The position numbers and the translations under genes are program-made. The notes beneath the pieces are model-generated. The model was not told the origin of the DNA and did not search any database. It saw only the letters and a list, made by a program, of their open reading frames with translations. This document shows, piece after piece, positions 3,484 through 29,580 of a DNA stretch of 40,565 nucleotides. The first letter of the stretch is position 1. Every line of letters starts with the position of its first letter. Source of the stretch: a virus (lineage: Duplodnaviria; Heunggongvirae; Uroviricota; Caudoviricetes); the IMG/VR virus record IMGVR_UViG_2687453529_000006. One strand, 5' to 3'.

Positions 3484-4188
3484 TTATCCGATATCGCTTC
3501 GGGAAGTTGATAACAACTTTAATTCTGACTCAAGTTCATCAACTCTTTCAGTCAGTTTCTGGATATGGTGAATCAGTGGAACAACCAGACGTTCGTACAT
3601 TACACCTTCGGCAACAAGGCCATTGCTGGAAATAGCTTCAGGAGCATCATTCTCGTTAGCTGGTCGCCAGTGAACAAACTGAGGGGCAATTTCTCCTACT
3701 TCCTCGGCAATCAATCCATAGAATCCCCAATCGCGCCTGTCATTTTCGCATTGCGACCTGTACCACACAGGGCGCATCTTGAAAATGAGATCGGCGTGCT
3801 CCGAATCTATCGTCTCTACTGAATGTTTATAGCGGATAGACGATGTGGACCGCAGTACAGACGAAATTGCGGGGTCAGGATTAAGATAAAGGTTTGCCGC
3901 CGCTGTAGTCGTGCCCAATCCCCACAAATAAAACGCTTCACGACCAGTCAGCGGGTAAAAATCTCCACCATAACGACCACTTTCCAGATCGTTCACTTCC
4001 ACTTTGTTTTTCAGCTTATTATCAACTTCAGTTTTTGTGTATCTGGTGCTGATATCCTGCTTTGCACTGGTCATATCAGTCTGAAGCGTTGATACTTTTC
4101 CGTTAATTGAGGAAATATCTTCCTTGGCTTTACTGACATCTCCCTTTAACGTGGTGATGTCTCCTGGAATTACTGTCGATGTAGCCAT
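3484..4188 (-). CDS. Tail fibre-like protein with C-terminal intramolecular chaperone (peptidase S74-like) domain
   Basis: 234 aa; coiled-coil-like N-terminus; C-terminal DWGFYGLIAEEVGEIAPQFV...ELESELKLL resembles the endosialidase-chaperone auto-processing domain. Confidence 0.65.
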   Translation of the reverse strand: MATSTVIPGDITTLKGDVSKAKEDISSINGKVSTLQTDMTSAKQDISTRYTKTEVDNKLKNKVEVNDLESGRYGGDFYPLTGREAFYLWGLGTTTAAANLYLNPDPAISSVLRSTSSIRYKHSVETIDSEHADLIFKMRPVWYRSQCENDRRDWGFYGLIAEEVGEIAPQFVHWRPANENDAPEAISSNGLVAEGVMYERLVVPLIHHIQKLTERVDELESELKLLSTSRSDIG

Positions 4189-4197
4189 TTGTCTCCC

Positions 4198-4479
4198 TCA
4201 CATCCAGCCACGAAGTTGATGCTCAACAACAATCGCGTATTTATCGAATATTGACGATTTTTTTGCATCATTAATGATGCGCACGTTTACAAAATATCCG
4301 TCTTCCTTAACACATACCGGTTCGCCATCTTCAGTCAGTTCTCCGCTTTCTTTGTACACGTTACCTATCACGTCAATAAGAATATCATCCTGCATCGACT
4401 CGTCATCATAATAGCCAATACTCTCCATAAAGGCCGAAAAGTCGGCCCTGTCTGCAAATTTGAGTGTTAAATCTTTCAT
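4198..4479 (-). CDS. Hypothetical protein between the two fibre genes
   Basis: 93-aa acidic ORF; 4-nt overlap with stf stop region; no family recognised (does not resemble lambda Tfa). Confidence 0.45.
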   Translation of the reverse strand: MKDLTLKFADRADFSAFMESIGYYDDESMQDDILIDVIGNVYKESGELTEDGEPVCVKEDGYFVNVRIINDAKKSSIFDKYAIVVEHQLRGWM

Positions 4480-6824
4480 TTAATACTCTCCCCCATTTGC
4501 GCATCAGTTAATTCTTTATGCCAGATACGCAGATTACGGATATGACCAAAAAGATGATACTCCCCATTAGTGCCCTGCCCTCCAATTCGCAATACTGCCC
4601 GTGGAACAATTGAAGTCCATGTTGTTTTTGCCGCAACAGATAATTCACCATTACATACGGCCTGAACATCTCCATCAGCGCCACAACGTAAGCCTGAAAT
4701 GATTTTCCTCTGGGTTGTTGCCACATATTTATTACACCCTCCCATAGAAATAAAAGGAGAACCGGCATCAGAGAAATTATTACCACGGAATCCATGCGTG
4801 AACAGACCATTTTCCTGATAATCTTTAACATTAAAGATTAATGGTGATTTGCTGGGAGGGATATCCCAGTTTTTATTAACTTCAACAAGAGCACTGAATG
4901 GTAATCGGTGAATATTGTTTCTTACAGGTATTGTCACCATGTCGCTGGAGCGAGTGCCAGGAGCCCCTTCAGTAATGATAAATGACGTCCTGTACGACCC
5001 AATCTCCGCCTGAGGCATCGCAATATCTAACGTAGAGCCATTGGGGATAATACTGATTCCAGGCATCGCCAGGATTTCAAATCTTGAGCTGATTATCATT
5101 TCCTCATCTGCAAAAAGAGTGGCGGTAAACAACCACCATTCACCGACTCTTTCTGCCGTCACCGTCACATTATTTCCATGAACAACATTTCCCGTAACAG
5201 GATCCAGAGCTGCATCTGAATGAAAAACAAACGCACCATTATCAGACATTTTTCCGAACCTTGCACGACACCGGGAATTATCACTTTTCGTCAGACACGA
5301 TATCGTCGTATAAGAACCTGCCGGGCAGGTGTAAGCATCATTCGTGTTTACAGCAATTGCCTGATATCCTTGTGCTGTCGGATTTTCATTAATAACAGTT
5401 ATCCTTCCATAGTTAAACCCATTATCACTGTCGAACGACTCAACAGACACACTACCCGTGTTATTCCATGCTTCTGGTGTATTTGAATTTCTGAAATAGT
5501 TTGTTCTCTGTCCTTCAATCAGCAAACCTTCTCGTTCAAATCGCGGTTCGTCAACTTCAGCAACGGTTAATACACCTGATTTATTAATGTATGTTGCACC
5601 TGATGCGCGTTTGAAGCTAACAACCTTATCGGATGGCATTTTAATAACATCATCACCTACAGTTATTTGCTTATAACCAGGCGAAAAGCCAGCAAGCATA
5701 TCCAGTGAATCGTTAAACGGTATCCACACATCAGGCAGTGGCTGTAAGACATATTTATACGGCTCTGCTGCCTGGCTTGCATACTCTCTCGCTGCGTCTT
5801 CACTTGCTTTTGCAGCCATCTGGCTTGCAGCGGATGCTTTTGCCGAGTTAGTCGCCGCAGTCTCGCTCGCCTTTGCGTTGGTTTCACTGGTTTTTGCAGC
5901 TTTTTGACTGTTGGCTGATGCAGTGGCAGAAGAAGCCGCCGCACTTGCAGAACCAGCTGCAGCACTCTCGCTTTGGGCCGCCGCATCCTGACTGTTTTTC
6001 GCCGCAGTTTCGCTGGCTTTGGCATTCGTTTCGCTGGTCTTCGCTGCCGTCTGGCTGGACTTTGCGTTAGTTTCACTCGTCTTCGCTGCTTTCTGACTGT
6101 TAGCCGCAGCAGTTGCTGATCCAGCTGCTGAAGTCGCAGAATCGGCTGCCGCGCTCTCGCTTTCGGCTGCTGCAACCTGGCTGTTTTTTGCCGCAGTTTC
6201 ACTGGCTTTAGCATTCGTTTCGCTGGTTATCGCTGCCGTCTGGCTGGACTTTGCGTTGGTTTCGCTCGTCTTTGCGGCTGTCTCGCTATTTTTCGCGTTG
6301 GTTTCTGATTTTTTGGCTGCTGTCGCGGAGTTTGCCGATGCAGTCTTTGAGGTCGCTGCCGCCTGTGCACTATTAGCTGCATTCGTTTCTGACGTTTTCG
6401 CCGCGTTCTTCGATGATGCCGCTGCAGTTTCGGATTTCTTTGCCGCCGCTGCGCTCTGAGAGGCGGCTTCGGCGTTGCGTGCCGCTTCTTCCACCATTGC
6501 CTCAAAACGGCGCAATGCCTCCGGCATGACATCATCTTCCGTCATGGCACCGAGAAAATCATTCAGCGTACCTGGTCTGGAGCCTTCATAGACGGTAATG
6601 GTCCCGGCATGTGAAGGCGGAAAACCTTCAACCAGCAGGGTGACGCTGTACTGGCCATACTCAACATCCATGCTGTAACGCCCGGCTTCATCAGGATTTT
6701 CAGAGGCCACCGTGTTCACCAGTACCGTGGTGCTGTTACGCTTTGCCTTCAGTTGAATAGTGCAGTTCTGTATTGGTTTTCCCGCACCATCTTTCAGCAC
6801 ACCTGAGATTTTTACTGCTGCCAT
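4476..6824 (-). CDS. stf: Side tail fibre protein (lambda Stf-like N-terminus, repeat-rich shaft, divergent C-terminal domain)
   Basis: N-terminus from Met3 (MAAVKISGVLKDGAGKPIQNCTIQLKAKRNSTTV...) matches lambda Stf; track ORF begins at an upstream GTG; GGAG RBS before the ATG at 6824. Confidence 0.85.
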   Translation of the reverse strand: MAAVKISGVLKDGAGKPIQNCTIQLKAKRNSTTVLVNTVASENPDEAGRYSMDVEYGQYSVTLLVEGFPPSHAGTITVYEGSRPGTLNDFLGAMTEDDVMPEALRRFEAMVEEAARNAEAASQSAAAAKKSETAAASSKNAAKTSETNAANSAQAAATSKTASANSATAAKKSETNAKNSETAAKTSETNAKSSQTAAITSETNAKASETAAKNSQVAAAESESAAADSATSAAGSATAAANSQKAAKTSETNAKSSQTAAKTSETNAKASETAAKNSQDAAAQSESAAAGSASAAASSATASANSQKAAKTSETNAKASETAATNSAKASAASQMAAKASEDAAREYASQAAEPYKYVLQPLPDVWIPFNDSLDMLAGFSPGYKQITVGDDVIKMPSDKVVSFKRASGATYINKSGVLTVAEVDEPRFEREGLLIEGQRTNYFRNSNTPEAWNNTGSVSVESFDSDNGFNYGRITVINENPTAQGYQAIAVNTNDAYTCPAGSYTTISCLTKSDNSRCRARFGKMSDNGAFVFHSDAALDPVTGNVVHGNNVTVTAERVGEWWLFTATLFADEEMIISSRFEILAMPGISIIPNGSTLDIAMPQAEIGSYRTSFIITEGAPGTRSSDMVTIPVRNNIHRLPFSALVEVNKNWDIPPSKSPLIFNVKDYQENGLFTHGFRGNNFSDAGSPFISMGGCNKYVATTQRKIISGLRCGADGDVQAVCNGELSVAAKTTWTSIVPRAVLRIGGQGTNGEYHLFGHIRNLRIWHKELTDAQMGESIK
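5830..6440. repeat. Imperfect tandem DNA repeats inside stf encoding (S/T)ETNAK(A/S)S-type repeats
   Basis: Repeated units visible at about 21-nt and about 190-nt periodicity (e.g. gccgcagtttcgctggctttggcattcgtttcgctgg... recurs). Confidence 0.7.
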
Positions 6825-6888: not shown

Positions 6889-7488
6889 TCAGAATTTATA
6901 ACCGACACCCACGATGAAACCGTCAGTGCGCCAGTCGCCACTGCCGGAGCCTTCATAAGCAATATCAATGGCCACGGATTCGGTCGGGTTAAACTGCACG
7001 CCAGCTCCCCACGCCAGAGATGTGTTGCTGTGGCGATCGTCATCACTTCCGGTCAGCACATCGTGCGTTTTCCCCTTGTTGTCAGTTACGCGGAGATAAT
7101 CCCCGGAGAAGGTCGACACACGGCTGTAAGCCACACCTGCCATCGCATAAGCACTGAACCATTCATTCACGCGTACAGATGGCCCCGCCATCATGCTGAA
7201 CCAGCGGTTACGCACTGAATCTTCATGCCAGCGGGTATCGCTGTAATGCGTTTTTTGCTCATCTTTGGCATTGGCATAACTGAATGACGTCACCAGCCCC
7301 AGCGTGTCCGTAAATTCATAACGGTATTTCACGTTAATGCCCTTCAGGTCATCACTGCCTGGCATATCAGTATGGGTCTGAAGATACCCGGCGCTTAGTG
7401 TGGACTGATGCTCTGCTGCGCTCGCTGGCGTACCAGCGGCAACCAGCCAGACTACTGCGGACAGAATAACAGCACATAATTTACGCAT
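6889..7488 (-). CDS. lom: Lom/Ail-family outer-membrane protein
   Basis: 199 aa with signal peptide and beta-barrel pattern ending ...GVGYKF; lambda-like position after J. Confidence 0.85.
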   Translation of the reverse strand: MRKLCAVILSAVVWLVAAGTPASAAEHQSTLSAGYLQTHTDMPGSDDLKGINVKYRYEFTDTLGLVTSFSYANAKDEQKTHYSDTRWHEDSVRNRWFSMMAGPSVRVNEWFSAYAMAGVAYSRVSTFSGDYLRVTDNKGKTHDVLTGSDDDRHSNTSLAWGAGVQFNPTESVAIDIAYEGSGSGDWRTDGFIVGVGYKF

Positions 7489-13087: not shown

Positions 13088-13428
13088 CAGTGAGTGACCT
13101 CTTCAAAGGTACAGTTAAAATCGGTATACATGGCATTATCCGAAGTACTCCACTCCCTGCAGACAACCCTGACAGTCCTGTTGTGTTTTGGCGGGCGCCA
13201 CAAAAAAGCACGCATCCCGGCATGACGGGATAAAAAACTGTCCAGCACGGCGCGGGAATATTCATCTGTGACACGAAATACCGGTTTAAAGGTTTTCAGA
13301 TCCGCATTCAGACCACCAGCCCGTCGCTGTTCATATCCGTCACCGAACTTTACTGTAATAACAGATGGCTTTCGTGTCGTCTCCATTCCCTCGCGGGGGA
13401 TCCAGTTAAAAACTTCAGGTTCAGGCAC
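13087..13428 (-). CDS. M: Minor tail protein M
   Basis: VKFGDGYEQR... phage minor tail M signature; start placed at an in-frame GTG with GGAGG RBS overlapping the tape-measure stop (start uncertain; track ORF extends to 13473). Confidence 0.75.
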   Translation of the reverse strand: MPEPEVFNWIPREGMETTRKPSVITVKFGDGYEQRRAGGLNADLKTFKPVFRVTDEYSRAVLDSFLSRHAGMRAFLWRPPKHNRTVRVVCREWSTSDNAMYTDFNCTFEEVTH

Positions 13429-16400
13429 TGCATAATCCTCCGTCCCGACGTGATGACTGCATAATTGACACAACCCTGCTGTCGATCAGATCCACCAGCC
13501 CCCTGGCTGACTGCGTATCTATCTCGCCATTGCTCCCTTTATTCTGAATACTGATGTGATACACGGGAGAATAGACAAATCCCCCGCCACCACTCACATT
13601 CCCAATGGCTCTGACCCCTAGGGAGCCGTCCGCTGCCCGAGTCAGTGGCATGATAGCTTCAGGCCCGGCCTCGCCCATCAGCCCGGCACCTTTCGCAAAA
13701 GCAAAATACGTCGGTGTATCCACAATGGTGTTACTGTAAGCACTCAGATTTGCCGATGTGTAAACACCGCCTTTTGCGTTCGCTACTGCACCGGAAAGCC
13801 AGTCGCCAACACTACCAATCCATCCCCCCACTCCCGACATTGTCCCGGAGAGTGATTTCAGCCCGTTAACAATGGCCGCGTTCATCAGGATTTTTGAAAC
13901 TTCCTGAAGGATCGAACTCCCCCAGTTTCTCCAGTCCACAACGTTTCCGGCCAGTGCCTCAGAAATATTTGAAACCAGACCATCCATAGTGGAAACGACC
14001 GCATCTGCCGCTTGTGAAGCATAATCAGTGGCACTGTCTGCCCAGTTCGTCAGCCCCTCTTTGAGCCCAGCATTCCAGTTACTGCGTAAAGCATCGGCCT
14101 TTGCATAATAATCCTGCTGATCGTTGAGACGCTCCTCCAGATATTTTTCATTCAGCGTTTTTTCCTGTTTCCACAGGGCTTCTTCGATTTCTCCGGTCTG
14201 GTACTGTCTCAGCAACTCATTATTTTTCTGCTCAAACTCCTGTCGGATGTTCCACATTTCCTGAAGCCGCTCACGTATTCGTGTTCCGTCTCCATACCCT
14301 AACAACTGAGCCTCATTTGATGCCCTGACACTGGCGTTACTGTCCGCCAGGCTGCTTTCATAAGCAGCAATTTGCTCACGAATTTTTTTCTGGTCGATGA
14401 GTGCTGCATTCTGTAAAAGGGTTTGTTTCTGCGCTTCTGATAAGGTTGATAATTCGCCCTGGCTGACCTGGTATTTCATCTTAGCCAGTTCAGTATTCTG
14501 TCCTGCCAGTGCTATTTGTTCTTTTTGTTGTTTAATCAGTCTGTTATAAGCATCTTCCGTTTTTTCTGCTTCCGATTTTCCACCACGTACCTTTGGCTTA
14601 TTCGCCTGGTTGTTACGCCATGCTTCCAGCGCGTTGTTGATATAAGTTTGCCTTGCCGTCTGATAGGCATCCCCCACAAAACCGAGATCATCCGCTACAT
14701 AGCCCAGACGAGTACGCTCACGCGCTTCCCCCTTCATACGGGATAAGGTCAGCTCTCGCTCAGTGTTATTCAGCGCGTTCTGCTGTTTATCATCCAGAGC
14801 AGCCTGTGGCAGCCGTAACGGTACATTCACCAGCCCCTGTCGCTGCTGAAGTAATTCATTACCAAGCCCAAGAAGACGATTAAACTCGGTATGTTGGCCA
14901 TTCATGATCAGTAATGACTGATATGCTTTGTTTTGTTCCGCTGCCTGTTGGCGGATCAGCACCACTCGTCGTTCTTCCAGCCCGGCAAGCACATCCTGGA
15001 TTGACTGGGCTTTTTCCTGCATTCCGGAAAGTCGGGACTGCTCAACAGCCAGCTGACTTGTTGCTTCTGCAAGCCCTTCTGTGACAGTTTTCACCGACGT
15101 CATGTGGTTAATCATAAAACCGTTATCGGTTGTCCAGCCCGGGTTTGCCAGGACATACTGATAGCCAGCAATTTTTTCCTGTAAGGATTTAATCTTACTT
15201 TTCTGCTCGTCAATTAACCTGTTCTGCTCCTCCAGAGCCTGCCGCGTCTTTTCTTCATTATCTGCCGCTTCAGGAAGTGACATTGCAGACGTTTTCTGGC
15301 GAATTTCGTCGATTGTTGCGGCATACTGACGCGCTGATTCTCTGGCCTGCTCCTGGTTCTGATACATTGTGTACCAGGCCGCCGCCCCCAGCATGACAAG
15401 TCCAGGCACACCACCAACCAGCCCCAGAGCACCGCTTAACAACCGACTACTAACTGACGTAACGTTATTCAGCGTTGCCTGTGCCGCTGTTCTGGCAGCA
15501 ATATTACGGGTAAGTGAAGCCTGTGCGGTTGCCAGTTTCGCTTCTGCTGCAGCCTGTTTTTCTGTACCACGGGCAGCCATAACCGCCTGCTGCGCACGAT
15601 ACAATGCCGCCCGCGCTCTGGCTGTTGCTATCTGTGTCCCTCTGAGCTGTGCCTCAGCAAGAGCCACTTCGTTTCTGGCAGCAGTGATTAACCCGGCAGT
15701 TGCAGAGCCCGCAGAAGACGCCATATTGCCAAAATATCGGGCTACACCAATTGCAACCAGAGCTCCCGCCGCCGTGGCAACCGTATCAATATTATTCGCA
15801 ACACCATTCATTATTCCGGTAAGCGTTTTTGTTGCACCGCTGGCATCATTCGCACCACCAACCCAGGCCATAAAGGCGTTTTCAACTTTGGTTGCAGAGG
15901 ATGATACGGTATCAGGCATGGCTGCATATTCATCCCGCAGCGTACCAAGCTGACTAATCAGTGCAGGAACAACCTTATCGGCGGTCAGCTTTCCATCATC
16001 CGCCATTGCCTTCAGATCTTTACGGGCAACCCCCATTCCTGCAGCCAGAGCACGAATAACACGATCACCGCTTTCATTTACTGAATTAAACTCTTCACCG
16101 CGCAGAACCCCTTGCGCCAGTGCCTGGCTGAACTGAGTGATCACCGAGCTGGCTTCCGCAGAACTGGCTCCGGACAATTTCAATCCTGTAGAAATGGCCT
16201 CGGTAACTTTCAGTACTTCCTCAGACCTGTAACCATATTCCCGCATGGAAGAAGCCGAACGTGCAAAAAGACTGGCGTTATCAGCAAAAGCAGTACCCGT
16301 TCTCTGGCTGATCGCCATTAATTCGCGCTGTGATGCCTGGAAATCATCGCTGGACTGCGTGGCCTGCTTCAAACGGGCATTTACTGAGCTCCATTCATCC

Positions 16401-16663
16401 GCAAGAGATATAAGATGTCCAGTGGCAAAAGCACCGGCAAATGCGCCAGCCATATTCATTGCCGAAGACTTCGCCGTATTTATCTGCTCGGTCACTTCTG
16501 CCAGTGCTCGCCGCATATCACGGGATGCAGCTGCAGACTGTCGACCTCCGTTCTGCATGGTACGGTAGTACTCCTGTCCCATACGTGAAGCTCGCGCAAT
16601 TTCTGACTGGAATGACTGCGAATTTGCCGAGATTTTTATAATCAGTTCGCGTAGTGACGCCAT
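13421..16663 (-). CDS. H: Tail tape measure protein
   Basis: 1080 aa, coiled-coil-rich and Ala/Gln-rich, in the position between G-T and M. Confidence 0.9.
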   Translation of the reverse strand: MASLRELIIKISANSQSFQSEIARASRMGQEYYRTMQNGGRQSAAASRDMRRALAEVTEQINTAKSSAMNMAGAFAGAFATGHLISLADEWSSVNARLKQATQSSDDFQASQRELMAISQRTGTAFADNASLFARSASSMREYGYRSEEVLKVTEAISTGLKLSGASSAEASSVITQFSQALAQGVLRGEEFNSVNESGDRVIRALAAGMGVARKDLKAMADDGKLTADKVVPALISQLGTLRDEYAAMPDTVSSSATKVENAFMAWVGGANDASGATKTLTGIMNGVANNIDTVATAAGALVAIGVARYFGNMASSAGSATAGLITAARNEVALAEAQLRGTQIATARARAALYRAQQAVMAARGTEKQAAAEAKLATAQASLTRNIAARTAAQATLNNVTSVSSRLLSGALGLVGGVPGLVMLGAAAWYTMYQNQEQARESARQYAATIDEIRQKTSAMSLPEAADNEEKTRQALEEQNRLIDEQKSKIKSLQEKIAGYQYVLANPGWTTDNGFMINHMTSVKTVTEGLAEATSQLAVEQSRLSGMQEKAQSIQDVLAGLEERRVVLIRQQAAEQNKAYQSLLIMNGQHTEFNRLLGLGNELLQQRQGLVNVPLRLPQAALDDKQQNALNNTERELTLSRMKGEARERTRLGYVADDLGFVGDAYQTARQTYINNALEAWRNNQANKPKVRGGKSEAEKTEDAYNRLIKQQKEQIALAGQNTELAKMKYQVSQGELSTLSEAQKQTLLQNAALIDQKKIREQIAAYESSLADSNASVRASNEAQLLGYGDGTRIRERLQEMWNIRQEFEQKNNELLRQYQTGEIEEALWKQEKTLNEKYLEERLNDQQDYYAKADALRSNWNAGLKEGLTNWADSATDYASQAADAVVSTMDGLVSNISEALAGNVVDWRNWGSSILQEVSKILMNAAIVNGLKSLSGTMSGVGGWIGSVGDWLSGAVANAKGGVYTSANLSAYSNTIVDTPTYFAFAKGAGLMGEAGPEAIMPLTRAADGSLGVRAIGNVSGGGGFVYSPVYHISIQNKGSNGEIDTQSARGLVDLIDSRVVSIMQSSRRDGGLCSA

Positions 16664-16678
16664 TCTCGTTCTCCAGGC

Positions 16679-16705
16679 AAAAAAAACCGCCGAAGCGGTT
16701 TTTGC
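16679..16705 (-). terminator. Intrinsic terminator between the zinc-ribbon gene and the tape measure gene
   Basis: Hairpin aaccgc-ttcg-gcggtt flanked by A-run and T-run (bidirectional form). Confidence 0.55.
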
Positions 16706-16707
16706 TT

Positions 16708-17049
16708 TTAAAGAAGCCCAGCCTTACGCCTTGCTTCTTCAAGATATTCATCATCCGTTTTTTGCGAAACGGTACTATCAGGGTTATGTGTTAAATCACT
16801 ACCGCAATGCTTACACTTAATGGCTTCTTCTTTGATCAACTCCGCACAGTAAGGGCATTTTTTCATGCCATTGCTCACCATTTGTTGCTCATGCGTTTTT
16901 TCATCTTTTTGGATTACAAGTGAATGAACCAGGGCAACGATAAAGAGTAAGGCTCCGTATATCCACCATCCCCAAAATGAACGCCCTTTACTTTGCGCGA
17001 TAATAGCCGGAATTAACCCCAGGACTAGCGCAATAAGAATAACTTCCAT
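16708..17049 (-). CDS. Small membrane protein with C-terminal zinc-ribbon (moron candidate)
   Basis: 113 aa; two hydrophobic helices then CPYC...CKHC; AAGGAG RBS; inserted between T and H where lambda has no gene. Confidence 0.6.
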   Translation of the reverse strand: MEVILIALVLGLIPAIIAQSKGRSFWGWWIYGALLFIVALVHSLVIQKDEKTHEQQMVSNGMKKCPYCAELIKEEAIKCKHCGSDLTHNPDSTVSQKTDDEYLEEARRKAGLL

Positions 17050-17107
17050 CAATATCTCCTTATTTACTTAATAAAAATCGGAATCATAATCCAGTAAAGT
17101 AAGAAGA

Positions 17108-17781
17108 TCATTGTGTCGCTGCAAATAATGCATTTTCAAACGCTGTGAACGGATCTTTAATATTATTTGCAGGAACGACCTCCCACTGAAGAATCGCTTC
17201 ATTCAGTGGAACTTTGACACCCTGCGCCCCGTAAACTGCAGAAACTATCTGGGCAGCCCGGATATCAGCCCGCTCGTCACCCAGCGGGCTGATCCTGTCA
17301 AATTCTGCCCACATCATGATTTCCGATGCAGACATTTCCCGGCGTAACTCTGACAATGTGCGCCCCATCCTGAGCGCCAGCATCATCAGAAAACGAATAC
17401 CCGGAAGTGCTACTTTTTTTTAATAACTTCAGCATCAGTGATCAGTTCCAGTGACTGACGAAGCAGTCGCGCATGTACAGGACCATATACTGCAAGTACC
17501 TGCTCCCGATCATCCGCTGAAAACACGGGTTGCATCCCGGTATCACACAGAACATCGATGAACAGTTCAACATCCGCTTCCAGATTTCGGCGGGCACGCT
17601 CCGCAACTGATAACGGTGTATCATCATCTCCGGTTTTAACGATCTCCTGCCAACGTAACCAGGCTTCTGCAGAGGGTTCCCGTAATACAACCGTTGTACC
17701 TTCCCACTCAGGAACATCAACTGTTTTGTGGCGAAAACCAGACATCGTCGCCAGTGCCAGATTGCGGATATTTTTAGACAT
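17108..17781 (-). CDS. Tail assembly chaperone G-T fusion produced by -1 programmed frameshift
   Basis: T-frame ORF (MMLALRMGRTL...) is open back to the slippery site at the end of G. Confidence 0.6.
17410..17781 (-). CDS. G: Tail assembly chaperone G
   Basis: 124-126 aa ORF directly after the major tail gene; AAGGAGG RBS favours the second Met; ends ...EVIKKK. Confidence 0.8.
   Translation of the reverse strand: MSKNIRNLALATMSGFRHKTVDVPEWEGTTVVLREPSAEAWLRWQEIVKTGDDDTPLSVAERARRNLEADVELFIDVLCDTGMQPVFSADDREQVLAVYGPVHARLLRQSLELITDAEVIKKK
17413..17424 (-). promoter_or_regulatory. Programmed -1 ribosomal frameshift site (A-AAA-AAG heptamer)
   Basis: mRNA reads GUU AUU AAA AAA AAG UAG; the -1 frame continues into the T extension. 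Confidence 0.6.
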
Positions 17782-17795
17782 AGATTTCATCCTCC

Positions 17796-18500
17796 TTAAC
17801 TGACAGTTACGGTGCAGGAAGTGGAGGTCACCTTATTAATCGGGCTTGCTGAATCAGAAACCTCACAGGTATACGCACCGGCATCTCCGGATGTCACGGA
17901 GGCCTTGTTGAAAGTTGCCGATGTCTGCCCGGAAACTGGAGAGCTGCCTTTCTTCCAGACATATGAATAAGGAGGCACACCACCTGATGCCTCAACAGAC
18001 ATATTCAGCGTTTCACTGGCAGAAACCTGTAGTGTACTTTTCAAATCAGAGAGGAGTTTCAAAGGTTCAGTGGTCAGAGAGGGCTTTCCTTTCAGGCGCA
18101 GGGAAAATGTGGCAGCAACAACACCGTTGGTTCCCACAGACCAGGTATGCTGGCGAACTTCTGCCATAAAGGTAAATCCATTTCCTGACGGGAAAATAAC
18201 TTTGAAACCGTATGTGGTGTCGTTGTCATAAGCACTACGCAACGCGTTCTGGGCAGCGTTGAGATAAAAGTTTCCTGACATGGAAATCTCTGAAGCAGCC
18301 CCAAGACCGTTGATATTCTCCTGCTCGGTAGAACACAGCGTAGTGACATCAATATCCTGTTTCTGCCCGGCGGTAAACTGAACCTCTTTAATCGTACAGC
18401 TCAGTTCAAGAAAACTGGCAGAACTCAGCGTTTCTGCCGTTACCGGTGCAGACGAGATCATGACTTTGGTCTGCTGAGAACGTTCAAAATTAGAGGACAT
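17796..18500 (-). CDS. V: Major tail protein V with C-terminal Ig-like domain
   Basis: From Met18 of track ORF with GGAG RBS; C-terminus (…GGVPPYSYVWKKGSS...AYTCEVSDS) looks like a bacterial Ig-like domain as on lambda V. Confidence 0.85.
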   Translation of the reverse strand: MSSNFERSQQTKVMISSAPVTAETLSSASFLELSCTIKEVQFTAGQKQDIDVTTLCSTEQENINGLGAASEISMSGNFYLNAAQNALRSAYDNDTTYGFKVIFPSGNGFTFMAEVRQHTWSVGTNGVVAATFSLRLKGKPSLTTEPLKLLSDLKSTLQVSASETLNMSVEASGGVPPYSYVWKKGSSPVSGQTSATFNKASVTSGDAGAYTCEVSDSASPINKVTSTSCTVTVS

Positions 18501-18516
18501 ACTCGTCTCCTGAAAA

Positions 18517-18542
18517 TAAAAAACCCGCCAGCGGCGGGTGGG
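18517..18542 (-). terminator. Hairpin plus U-run immediately upstream of the major tail gene
   Basis: Minus strand: cccgcc-gct-ggcggg followed by TTTTTATTTTCAGG. Confidence 0.4.
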
Positions 18543-18559
18543 TAAAATCATTAACGACC

Positions 18560-28814: not shown

Positions 28815-29567
28815 CTATCGTGTCACTTTTTGCAACTGTAACTCTGCGAATGCTTCTTCCTGCCAGCACTTTGTTACCAGTTTATCAATGACGTCTGCAT
28901 ATCCTTTGTACCACTGATAATCCGTCAGGTCTGGTACCAGCTTCTGGACATGACGTCGTGCCAGTGTGGTCGGTAAACGACTAAACCGATTTCCATTGCA
29001 ACGCCCACAAATCTTATAAACAGGCGCGCCATGAAGCCGGGTTCTTTTTTCATCCAGGACAATGCCTTTACCCTTACACCCTCTGCAAGCCGTGCTGACT
29101 TCTCCCTTACCATGGCAATGCTGACATAATTCCTTCACCCACTCTTCCTTGATAACAGACTCACCGCTTCTGGAGTGTTTCACCACTTCGCGCAATACAT
29201 TATGAAATCCAGTACCAGCACAATGCTCACAGCGAGCCTTACTTGCCGCAGACCTGGAATAATCAGCAAAGGCAAAATTCACAAGGTAAGTGATGATCTG
29301 TAACCGGGTTTCTTCACTCAATTTGTTCAATGTCGGGTTATCCAGTGCCATCGCGTAATTGAGCAGACCTTCAATCGCAAACTGAGGATCCTGAACACCA
29401 ACTTTTGCCAGGAATAAGGCAAACCCAAGCGGTGCTTTCGACTGCACCATCCCCTGCGCAGCCATCACATCCGTAATCGTTAAACCACCCGAGCCTGTCG
29501 CCGGTGCCTCATCGCTCAATTTGGGAGATTTTGGGGAGTAATATTTTGGTAAGGCTTCAAGGTTCAT
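28815..29567 (-). CDS. Q: Late-gene antitermination protein Q (QuuQ-like, CxxC zinc-finger)
   Basis: 250 aa with multiple CxxC pairs; resembles E. coli Qin QuuQ as remembered; directly upstream of lysis genes. Confidence 0.8.
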   Translation of the reverse strand: MNLEALPKYYSPKSPKLSDEAPATGSGGLTITDVMAAQGMVQSKAPLGFALFLAKVGVQDPQFAIEGLLNYAMALDNPTLNKLSEETRLQIITYLVNFAFADYSRSAASKARCEHCAGTGFHNVLREVVKHSRSGESVIKEEWVKELCQHCHGKGEVSTACRGCKGKGIVLDEKRTRLHGAPVYKICGRCNGNRFSRLPTTLARRHVQKLVPDLTDYQWYKGYADVIDKLVTKCWQEEAFAELQLQKVTR

Positions 29568-29580
29568 GCTCGTTCTCCAC

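Follow-up and report, generated by a model that had tools for sequence, protein, structure and literature searches.

A probable moron gene for a zinc-ribbon membrane protein at the junction between the T and tape-measure genes of an HK97-like Escherichia coli prophage

The IMG/VR record IMGVR_UViG_2687453529_000006, a caudoviricete virus sequence of 40,565 nucleotides (nt), is here called the window. It derives from an E. coli lambdoid prophage of HK97-like type, integrated at dusA, and carries on the minus strand, between the tail assembly gene T and the tape-measure protein (TMP) gene, a gene for a 113-amino acid (aa) membrane protein with a zinc ribbon. The gene is very probably a real accessory gene of the moron type. 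The reading preferred here, to which a probability of about 0.45 is assigned, is that of an optional cassette of about 400 bp, composed of promoter, ribosome binding site (RBS) and gene, placed before a terminator-like hairpin already resident at the junction, and serving to exclude the DNA of incoming phages. An initial annotation, made from sequence alone, had described at the same position a zinc-ribbon membrane protein gene, inserted between the G-T and tape-measure genes; its location is borne out on the minus strand, as are the length of 113 aa and the strong RBS. The elements of the junction are listed below.

16706-17107, minus strand: insert (moron) of some 400 bp, bounded by the T stop codon and the resident hairpin
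16708-17049 (stop included), minus strand: coding sequence of the 113-aa membrane zinc-ribbon protein, with the ATG at 17049, from the open reading frame (ORF) list and the sequence
17061-17056, minus strand: RBS AAGGAG, 6 nt 5' of the ATG, read from the sequence
16915-17046, minus strand: two-helix membrane hairpin, residues 2-45, from the AlphaFold model and alignment conservation
16792-16866, minus strand: Cys4 zinc ribbon, residues 62-86, CPYC...CKHC, from Pfam PF13248
16679-16703, minus strand: hairpin A5-CCGC-UUCG-GCGG-U8, just before the TMP RBS, part of the T-TMP junction
16674-16671, minus strand: TMP RBS GGAG, directly after the hairpin
17108-17386, minus strand: T, tail assembly protein gene, left flank (PF06223, E 2e-17)
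13421-16663, minus strand: TMP gene, right flank (PF06120, PF20155, PF09718)

The T-TMP junction and its transcription signals

The junction was surveyed in 80 IMG/VR contigs encoding a T protein at least 80% identical, distances being counted from the T reading frame. The hairpin lies 10 nt from the T stop codon in 71 of the 80 contigs and 404-409 nt from it in the other 9: eight of these occupied junctions contain the same gene, one a frameshifted copy of a 71% homologue. Compared with empty junctions (loci L056 and L060, phage phi467), the insert of about 400 bp stands in place of 8-10 nt. Between T and TMP there are 39-45 nt in the 63 related contigs where both genes could be called, 45 nt in phi467, which is about 90% identical in G and T, and 19 nt in HK022, both phages being devoid of the insert. 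The GC content is 0.36-0.43 over positions 16600-17200, versus 0.47-0.56 in the flanks. The comparison with relatives lacking the insert, advised in the initial annotation, is therefore in favor of the moron layout proposed there, as are the drop in GC and the location of gp15 of phage HK97 in the identical slot. Of the features listed by Juhala et al. 2000 (as summarised in PMC3594210), insertion between genes adjacent in relatives and a composition unlike that of the surrounding genes are both found; a terminator belonging to the insert is not, since empty sites, 71 out of 71, have the hairpin in common with it. For a promoter of its own, a further feature of the list, there are the candidates described below.

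Conservation of the gene in all relatives, as part of tail structure or assembly, would have spoken against the proposal of the initial annotation, by its own account; such conservation is not seen. A role in tail structure or assembly, for example as a tape-measure helper, is suggested only by the position inside the tail operon; 71 of 80 close relatives, their tail modules intact, do without the gene, as do phi467, Evi and HK022, all deposited as phage genomes; it is a pseudogene in one relative and occupies different slots in different phages, so that this role is very improbable and effectively refuted. The pseudogene is found in IMG/VR record UViG_2778261301_000008 (L045/L055, about 5001-5332), where the 71%-identical T-TMP copy is broken by a frameshift/stop into two ORFs of 57 and 55 aa. 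The flanking tail genes look intact around the split copy, indicating that the gene is dispensable and can decay. A Cronobacter prophage (GCA_050602645.1; L006, 5001-8289) looks degraded: downstream tail genes are missing, and the ORF following the zinc-ribbon gene matches both tape-measure Pfam models and IMS/UmuC-type ones. The zinc-ribbon gene is kept there, with an identical protein sequence, despite the disrupted tape-measure gene.

Of 5,426 complete E. coli genomes, 43 match the whole of the 1.1-kb stretch surrounding the gene, and 902 some part of it. Related tail modules are found in about 1.2 places per genome in the 30 listed moron-bearing genomes, versus 1.07 overall, a measure too crude to bear on exclusion.

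The initial annotation had also assigned to the gene an intrinsic terminator of its own. A hairpin is indeed located just before the tape-measure start, folding at -12.6 kcal/mol (z = -1.86), while its attribution to the insert does not hold. Empty junctions read TGA-GTCAACAT-AACCGCTTCGGCGG-T7-8-CGTCCGGAGAATGAGTGTG, with identical hairpin, T run and TMP RBS; the CCGC-N4-GCGG-T-run hairpin is found 10 nt past the T stop codon in all 71 of them, and therefore belongs to the junction, not to the insert. Empty or occupied, all 80 related loci contain it (L056, L060 and L001 of phi467 among them). The pairing of the stem is kept in the lineage variants, where the loop is TGCG in the 78% E. coli lineage and the stem is CCCCGC/GCGGGG in Cronobacter, and also in HK97, where the hairpin at the T-TMP junction features a CCCGCT/AGCGGG stem. 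A similar layout of hairpin, T run and (A)TTG(T/C)CCGGAGA is seen ahead of the TMP start codon in a Klebsiella siphophage and in two Pseudomonas phages (L134, L020, L021), and a terminator-like hairpin is present 3' of every family member, in all the slots examined. The consensus terminator scan omitted the hairpin at 16679-16703, probably because extension of the stem by A/U pairs consumes part of the T run; Rfam matches to isrK and rsmX over it are weak, far under the gathering scores.

The resident hairpin can still end a transcript of the moron. At empty sites it could act as a downstream insulator, stabilise the mRNA, or represent a scar of cassette exchange or a landing pad for it. Given its presence there, a terminator beside a small gene is not, alone, proof that the gene belongs to a mobile cassette.

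Two candidate sigma-70 promoters, named P2 and P1, were identified upstream of the gene.

17083-17111, minus strand: P2, -35 ATGATC (17111-17106), 17-nt spacer, -10 TATGAT (17088-17083)
17110-17139, minus strand: P1, alternative candidate in the 3' end of T, TTGAAA-18 nt-CACAAT (9/12 in the consensus scan)

P2 scores 8/12, and its -35 element overlaps the TGA stop codon of T. An equivalent match begins 58-62 nt 5' of the start codon in 7 out of 11 family members, from five independent lineages (E. coli; Cronobacter and Salmonella; Serratia; Atlantibacter; Edwardsiella) and three slots; the probability in shuffled sequences is 0.02-0.07 for each, and all other upstream positions collect fewer than three matches. 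For P1, HK97 features TTGAGG-18-CACAAT at the same position, while empty-site relatives do not; the match in HK97 may be explained by shared coding sequence. P2 appears the more persuasive of the two, and the comparison of sequences gives good support to a putative promoter travelling with the gene. A promoter-like match on the plus strand (TTTACT-16-CATAAT, 9/12, at 17063-17090) is also present in the insert leader, antisense into T.

No terminator is found between T and the 113-aa gene, which is co-oriented with the late operon. Both these features, along with the weakness of the promoter matches, would fit an accessory gene used in the lytic cycle only, expressed within the late operon and, for example, blocking injection by progeny or competitors, or tuning lysis. 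The positional conservation of the promoter-like element across lineages and slots is against it, as are the identical copy retained by the Cronobacter prophage with a disrupted tape-measure gene, and the complete lysis cassette found elsewhere in the window prophage: on balance, a purely lytic function is decidedly unlikely.

The encoded protein and its family

The ORF is a real gene under strong purifying selection: against the 86%-identical E. coli variant, the ratio of nonsynonymous to synonymous substitution rates (dN/dS) is 0.078, at a dS of about 0.9, with values of 0.02 for the ribbon, 0.10 for the membrane hairpin and 0.15 for the tail. The product is labelled "zinc ribbon domain-containing protein" in RefSeq (WP_021543566.1) and by the Prokaryotic Genome Annotation Pipeline (PGAP), and is assigned to phrog_8436 (E 3e-51), for which PHROGs lists the function as unknown. 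It is a predicted membrane-anchored zinc-ribbon protein, with a two-helix hairpin and a short C-terminal helix. In the AlphaFold model, obtained from a 58-sequence alignment (mean pLDDT 76.5), helices occupy residues 2-21 and 25-45, followed by a short helix (50-59), ribbon strands (around 62-73) and a last helix (99-109). The ribbon matches Zn_ribbon_3 (PF13248) with 34.6 bits (E 1.1e-8; gathering cut-off 27), so that both the pair of transmembrane (TM) helices and the CPYC...CKHC ribbon, already noted in the initial annotation, are confirmed by these predictions. The four cysteines (C65, C68, C79, C82) are invariant or nearly so across the family alignments; the loop of the hairpin (K21-G22-R23-S24) is nearly invariant, together with W28, W29, Y31, G32 and H42.

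The orientation of the protein in the membrane is differently indicated by different cues. The invariant K/R loop favours a topology with the loop inside and the ribbon outside, while the Cys4 ribbon and the 11 K/R among the C-terminal 65 residues favour a ribbon inside. Natural fusions are found of both kinds: in P0337 a signal peptide and a 200-aa domain precede the core, implying an external ribbon, while in P0384 and P0319 a third TM segment follows the ribbon (preceded by RRRK in P0384), implying an internal one.

The family is large. A word-indexed search with the 113-aa protein returned 1,761 relatives, and an exhaustive search by hidden Markov model (HMM) of 1.84 billion cluster representatives yielded 4,016 at E<=1e-10, of which 370 reached E<=1e-30; the family includes at least 370 clusters at 50% identity, from many phyla. 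Its conserved core corresponds to the first 86 residues or so, where the membrane hairpin is as conserved as the ribbon, and is marked by the signature GLIPAxIAxxKGRSFxxWWxYGxxLFIVALPHS, followed by CPxCAE...C..C. The C-terminal part is variable, giving rise to forms of about 90, 113 and 170-185 aa. In a scan of species-level genomes the core is found, at 50-60% identity, in Proteobacteria (all classes), Firmicutes, Bacteroidota, Spirochaetes, Acidobacteria, Nitrospirae, Chloroflexi and others. The membrane hairpin of the family is without a Pfam model; NCBIfam, PADLOC and Rfam gave no above-threshold match at the feature; when the AlphaFold model was compared with viral structures by Foldseek, all matches were to further members of the family, described as "zinc-ribbon containing"; and a search of the full-text literature found no functional study of the family.

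Enteric and Pseudomonas copies are overwhelmingly located within siphophage tail operons, beside injection genes, in a small number of slots. The T-TMP slot of HK97-like prophages is used in three E. coli lineages (100%, 86% and 78% protein identity), in Cronobacter (67%) and in Salmonella phage FSL SP-016 (64%). The slot between tail chaperone and TMP is used in an unrelated Klebsiella siphophage and in Pseudomonas phage vB_Pae_U7, where the family member is an unannotated 103-aa ORF (3968-4279), 34% identical, at a place where the record annotates two tiny ORFs on opposite strands; the same gap (L021, 3515-4279) contains a second cargo gene, for a BamE-like lipoprotein of 138 aa. The L-K slot is occupied in Edwardsiella. 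Long members of 170-185 aa occupy the K-I slot in Serratia and Atlantibacter prophages. A Pantoea copy lies in a non-phage neighbourhood. In the species-level sample, the immediate neighbours are T, TMP, L and K in enteric loci, and otherwise very mixed, including phage regulators, transposases, a type I methylase and an Ltp lipoprotein. A 57%-identical homologue was also found in the clone KP12_4 of Klebsiella phage KP12 (L003, 4001-4381), adjoining Rha and KilA genes; the record is classed in Vequintavirinae and, as the neighbourhood looks like that of a temperate phage, the clone may be chimeric or misclassified.

Outside enterics, a conserved partner gene is found directly 5' of the zinc-ribbon gene in at least 20 of 80 species-level loci. 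It encodes a protein of about 104 aa, apparently periplasmic, composed of an N-terminal membrane (signal) anchor and a domain of about 75 aa with two cysteines, marked by the motif ...FIDSADAMCER..GGVSLLCRG...RLPYSEWLY.ISTDGK.Y.R. Partner genes are located at about 5660-5998 in loci L150, L151, L156, L159, L162, L175, L195, L205 and L207, and at 6001-6315 in L218. The partner family has 929 members, all labelled hypothetical, and matches neither Pfam nor NCBIfam. In Vibrio parahaemolyticus, where the ribbon protein is 60% identical to that of the window, the pair is located in the accessory region of a prophage, between lysis and early genes and on the opposite strand; in Stenotrophomonas the partner adjoins a CI-like repressor. 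The partner gene was searched for in the window, and not found.

This distribution bears on the possibility of a lysogenic conversion unrelated to exclusion, in which the protein would change the envelope physiology of the host (stress tolerance, transport or signalling), possibly the ancestral job of the family. The spread over many phyla at 50-60% identity, the hundreds of clusters, the frequent association with the signal-anchored partner, the copies in non-phage neighbourhoods, and the derivation of HK97 gp15 itself from a bacterial family are all in its favor. The concentration of enteric and Pseudomonas copies beside injection genes is not, and partner-bearing cassettes are also found in the accessory or immunity regions of prophages, while the window prophage does not carry the partner; a function of this kind is regarded as unlikely.

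Another explanation would have the protein acting after DNA entry, in abortive infection or some other defence, with the ribbon as cytoplasmic sensor of a phage product and the membrane hairpin oligomerising to damage the membrane. The small size, the two TM helices, the charged C-terminal domain and the conserved polar/aromatic residues of the second helix (W28, W29, Y31, H42) could suit such a mechanism, and restriction-modification, toxin-antitoxin and transposase genes are among the non-enteric neighbours. Known defence families are not matched in PADLOC, and an action at the entry stage would account better for the adjacency to the tape-measure gene. Post-entry defence is considered quite unlikely.

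Comparison with exclusion proteins and the proposed function

The closest parallel is gene 15 of HK97, the first element to be called a moron, located between the tail chaperone and tape-measure genes (PMC3594210). Its product, derived from the bacterial YebO family, is an inner-membrane protein expressed by the prophage and experimentally shown to cause superinfection exclusion: it blocks genome entry by HK97 and HK75 in a tail-dependent manner, sensitivity mapping to the tail region (PMC3594210). The two genes share the T-TMP slot, in tail modules of the same family, and the organization: a short AT-rich leader, a strong RBS, a small inner-membrane protein, and a hairpin with a T run before the TMP RBS. 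Like the window gene, gene 15 is missing from HK022; the HK97 record describes it as "moron product", with a putative terminator after it. The proteins themselves differ, gp15 (phrog_5031, versus phrog_8436 for the window protein) being 62 aa long, with a single hydrophobic helix, and lacking a zinc ribbon.

The slot used by the Serratia and Atlantibacter members is likewise that of an annotated moron, HK022 gp20, in the K-I slot; the parallel drawn here concerns the slot, which is not the T-TMP one of the window. HK97 features a K-I gap of about 320 nt (L004, 6514-6834), without annotated genes and ending in an annotated putative terminator: since both HK022 and family members carry morons in the K-I slot, this gap may contain a remnant, or an unannotated small gene.

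At the level of the mode of action, P22 SieA, TP-J34 Ltp and Cor of phi80/N15 are similarly envelope proteins, expressed by prophages, which stop DNA entry or inactivate receptors (PMC3594210, PMC11436027). Homology of these proteins to that of the window was not detected; Ltp, moreover, is a lipoprotein of a Gram-positive phage, and Cor acts at the outer membrane. Ltp acts via the tape-measure protein.

By analogy with HK97 gp15, exclusion of DNA entry is tentatively favoured as the function of the 113-aa protein, at slightly less than even odds; superinfection exclusion, suggested in the initial annotation, is in this sense a reasonable analogy. In the lysogen, the gene would be transcribed from its own promoter, and the resident hairpin would end the transcript ahead of the tape-measure gene; during lytic growth the gene would also be read within the Q-antiterminated late operon. 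The protein, in the inner membrane, would stop the DNA of incoming siphophages from crossing it. The probable target would be the channel built by the incoming tape-measure protein with host inner-membrane proteins, and, by close linkage with the tape-measure gene, the specificity of exclusion would stay associated with the injection machinery recognised. The best circumstantial argument for an entry block at the tape-measure step is the repeated capture of the family beside tape-measure or tip genes, in unrelated tail modules. The strong purifying selection, the Q-like antiterminator of the prophage and the 60%-identical homologue of the Vibrio prophage also count in favor of the reading as a whole.

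A number of results weigh against entry exclusion by a prophage-expressed protein. The function rests on analogy, and prophage expression on sequence patterns; each promoter match is weak when taken singly (8-9/12). Homology to HK97 gp15 or YebO, taken into consideration, was rejected, as BLASTP gives E = 5 over 4 residues, and the PHROGs are different. The cues on topology conflict, charge counts being balanced and natural fusions in disagreement. PADLOC-DB contains no defence match, two weak scores (HEase, 21 bits; LmuB, 14 bits) being at the level of the ribbon. Finally, the family is very broad and also present outside prophages (Pantoea, many non-enteric genomes), for which reason its ancestral function may be unrelated to phages.

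The relationship with the T4 Imm family, defined by PF14373, must be included among these results. The window protein does not match PF14373 at E<=1, and none of 146 family representatives does at E<=0.001; alignment of the window-family hairpin to PF14373 by hhalign reaches a probability of 40-50%, over 21 columns limited to helix 1 and the loop, helix 2 being unaligned. A connection, which counts in favor of exclusion, is offered by gp065 of Pseudomonas phage YMC11/02/R656, located in the chaperone-TMP slot, where a PF14373 domain (E 1.6e-18) is joined to a homologous zinc ribbon. Like the window protein, gp065 features two hydrophobic helices, a basic loop and a CPxCAE...C..C ribbon; BLASTP aligns the two with E 3e-14, mainly driven by the ribbon. 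The end of helix 1 has in both the motif (L/F)-P-A-I-I-A-x-x-(K/R), which in the window family reads L-I-P-A-I-I-A-x-x-K-G-R. PF14373 scores 58 bits on T4 Imm, which differs in having no zinc ribbon, and 67 bits on gp065, and its association with a ribbon is a common architecture. Scores of a PF14373-type profile on the family have a median of 6.95 bits, compared with -0.2 for shuffled sequences; they are above reversed controls, and all below 14 bits. Membership in the PF14373/T4 Imm family is therefore rejected, on the basis of Pfam scans, hhalign and cross-HMM comparison, with a signal at the level of motif only, in helix 1 and loop. The window family and the T4 Imm type may be described, as far as sequences tell, as architectural analogues with a homologous ribbon; homology of the hairpins is not claimed.

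The moron concept was defined on the T-TMP gap of HK97-like phages, the cargo of which, in HK97, is a proven exclusion protein. The presence of a second, unrelated cargo family, in the same gap and in neighbouring tail slots of several genera, suggests that the gap serves in general as a docking site for membrane defences encoded by prophages. The 113-aa gene is, in this respect, a textbook moron in a textbook slot, with a widespread and uncharacterised cargo. A broader proposal is that the core of two TM helices and zinc ribbon defines a large unnamed family of membrane modules, spanning phyla, often translationally coupled to the periplasmic partner of about 104 aa, and repeatedly captured by temperate siphophages, beside tape-measure or tip genes, as a block to DNA entry directed at the tape-measure protein. 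In this full form the proposal is somewhat doubtful; if true, the family would be a new class, and a widespread one, of proteins for superinfection exclusion or defence. A function for the 113-aa protein could, in any case, inform hundreds of clusters labelled only "zinc ribbon domain-containing protein".

The surrounding prophage

The window is 99.98% identical to a region of the E. coli chromosome across 37.5 kb. PGAP annotates this region as a lambdoid prophage, with HK97-type head and tail genes, a Q-like antitermination protein, encoded upstream of the lysis and late genes, a lysis cassette and, after J, a Lom-family gene. Around the insert, all genes are on the minus strand, in the order major tail protein, G, T, 113-aa ORF, TMP; the TMP is 55% identical to HK97 gp16 over its full length (BLASTP). 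The features upstream of T are as follows.

17796-18551, minus strand: major tail protein gene, upstream of G
17410-17790, minus strand: G (PF06222)
17413-17419, minus strand: slippery heptamer A_AAA_AAG, a canonical -1 site at the end of G, before its TAG stop codon

T is in the -1 frame relative to G and, as read from the sequence, the slippery site frames it for a G-T fusion. At a greater distance, the window segments 542-2765, 6889-7488 and 28816-29568, mapped from locus L135 with an offset of 3601, cover the dusA side with a tyrosine integrase gene, an Ail/Lom gene and the Q-like gene. The Ail/Lom-family gene, following J and encoding an outer-membrane protein, is a second gene of classical moron type in this prophage.

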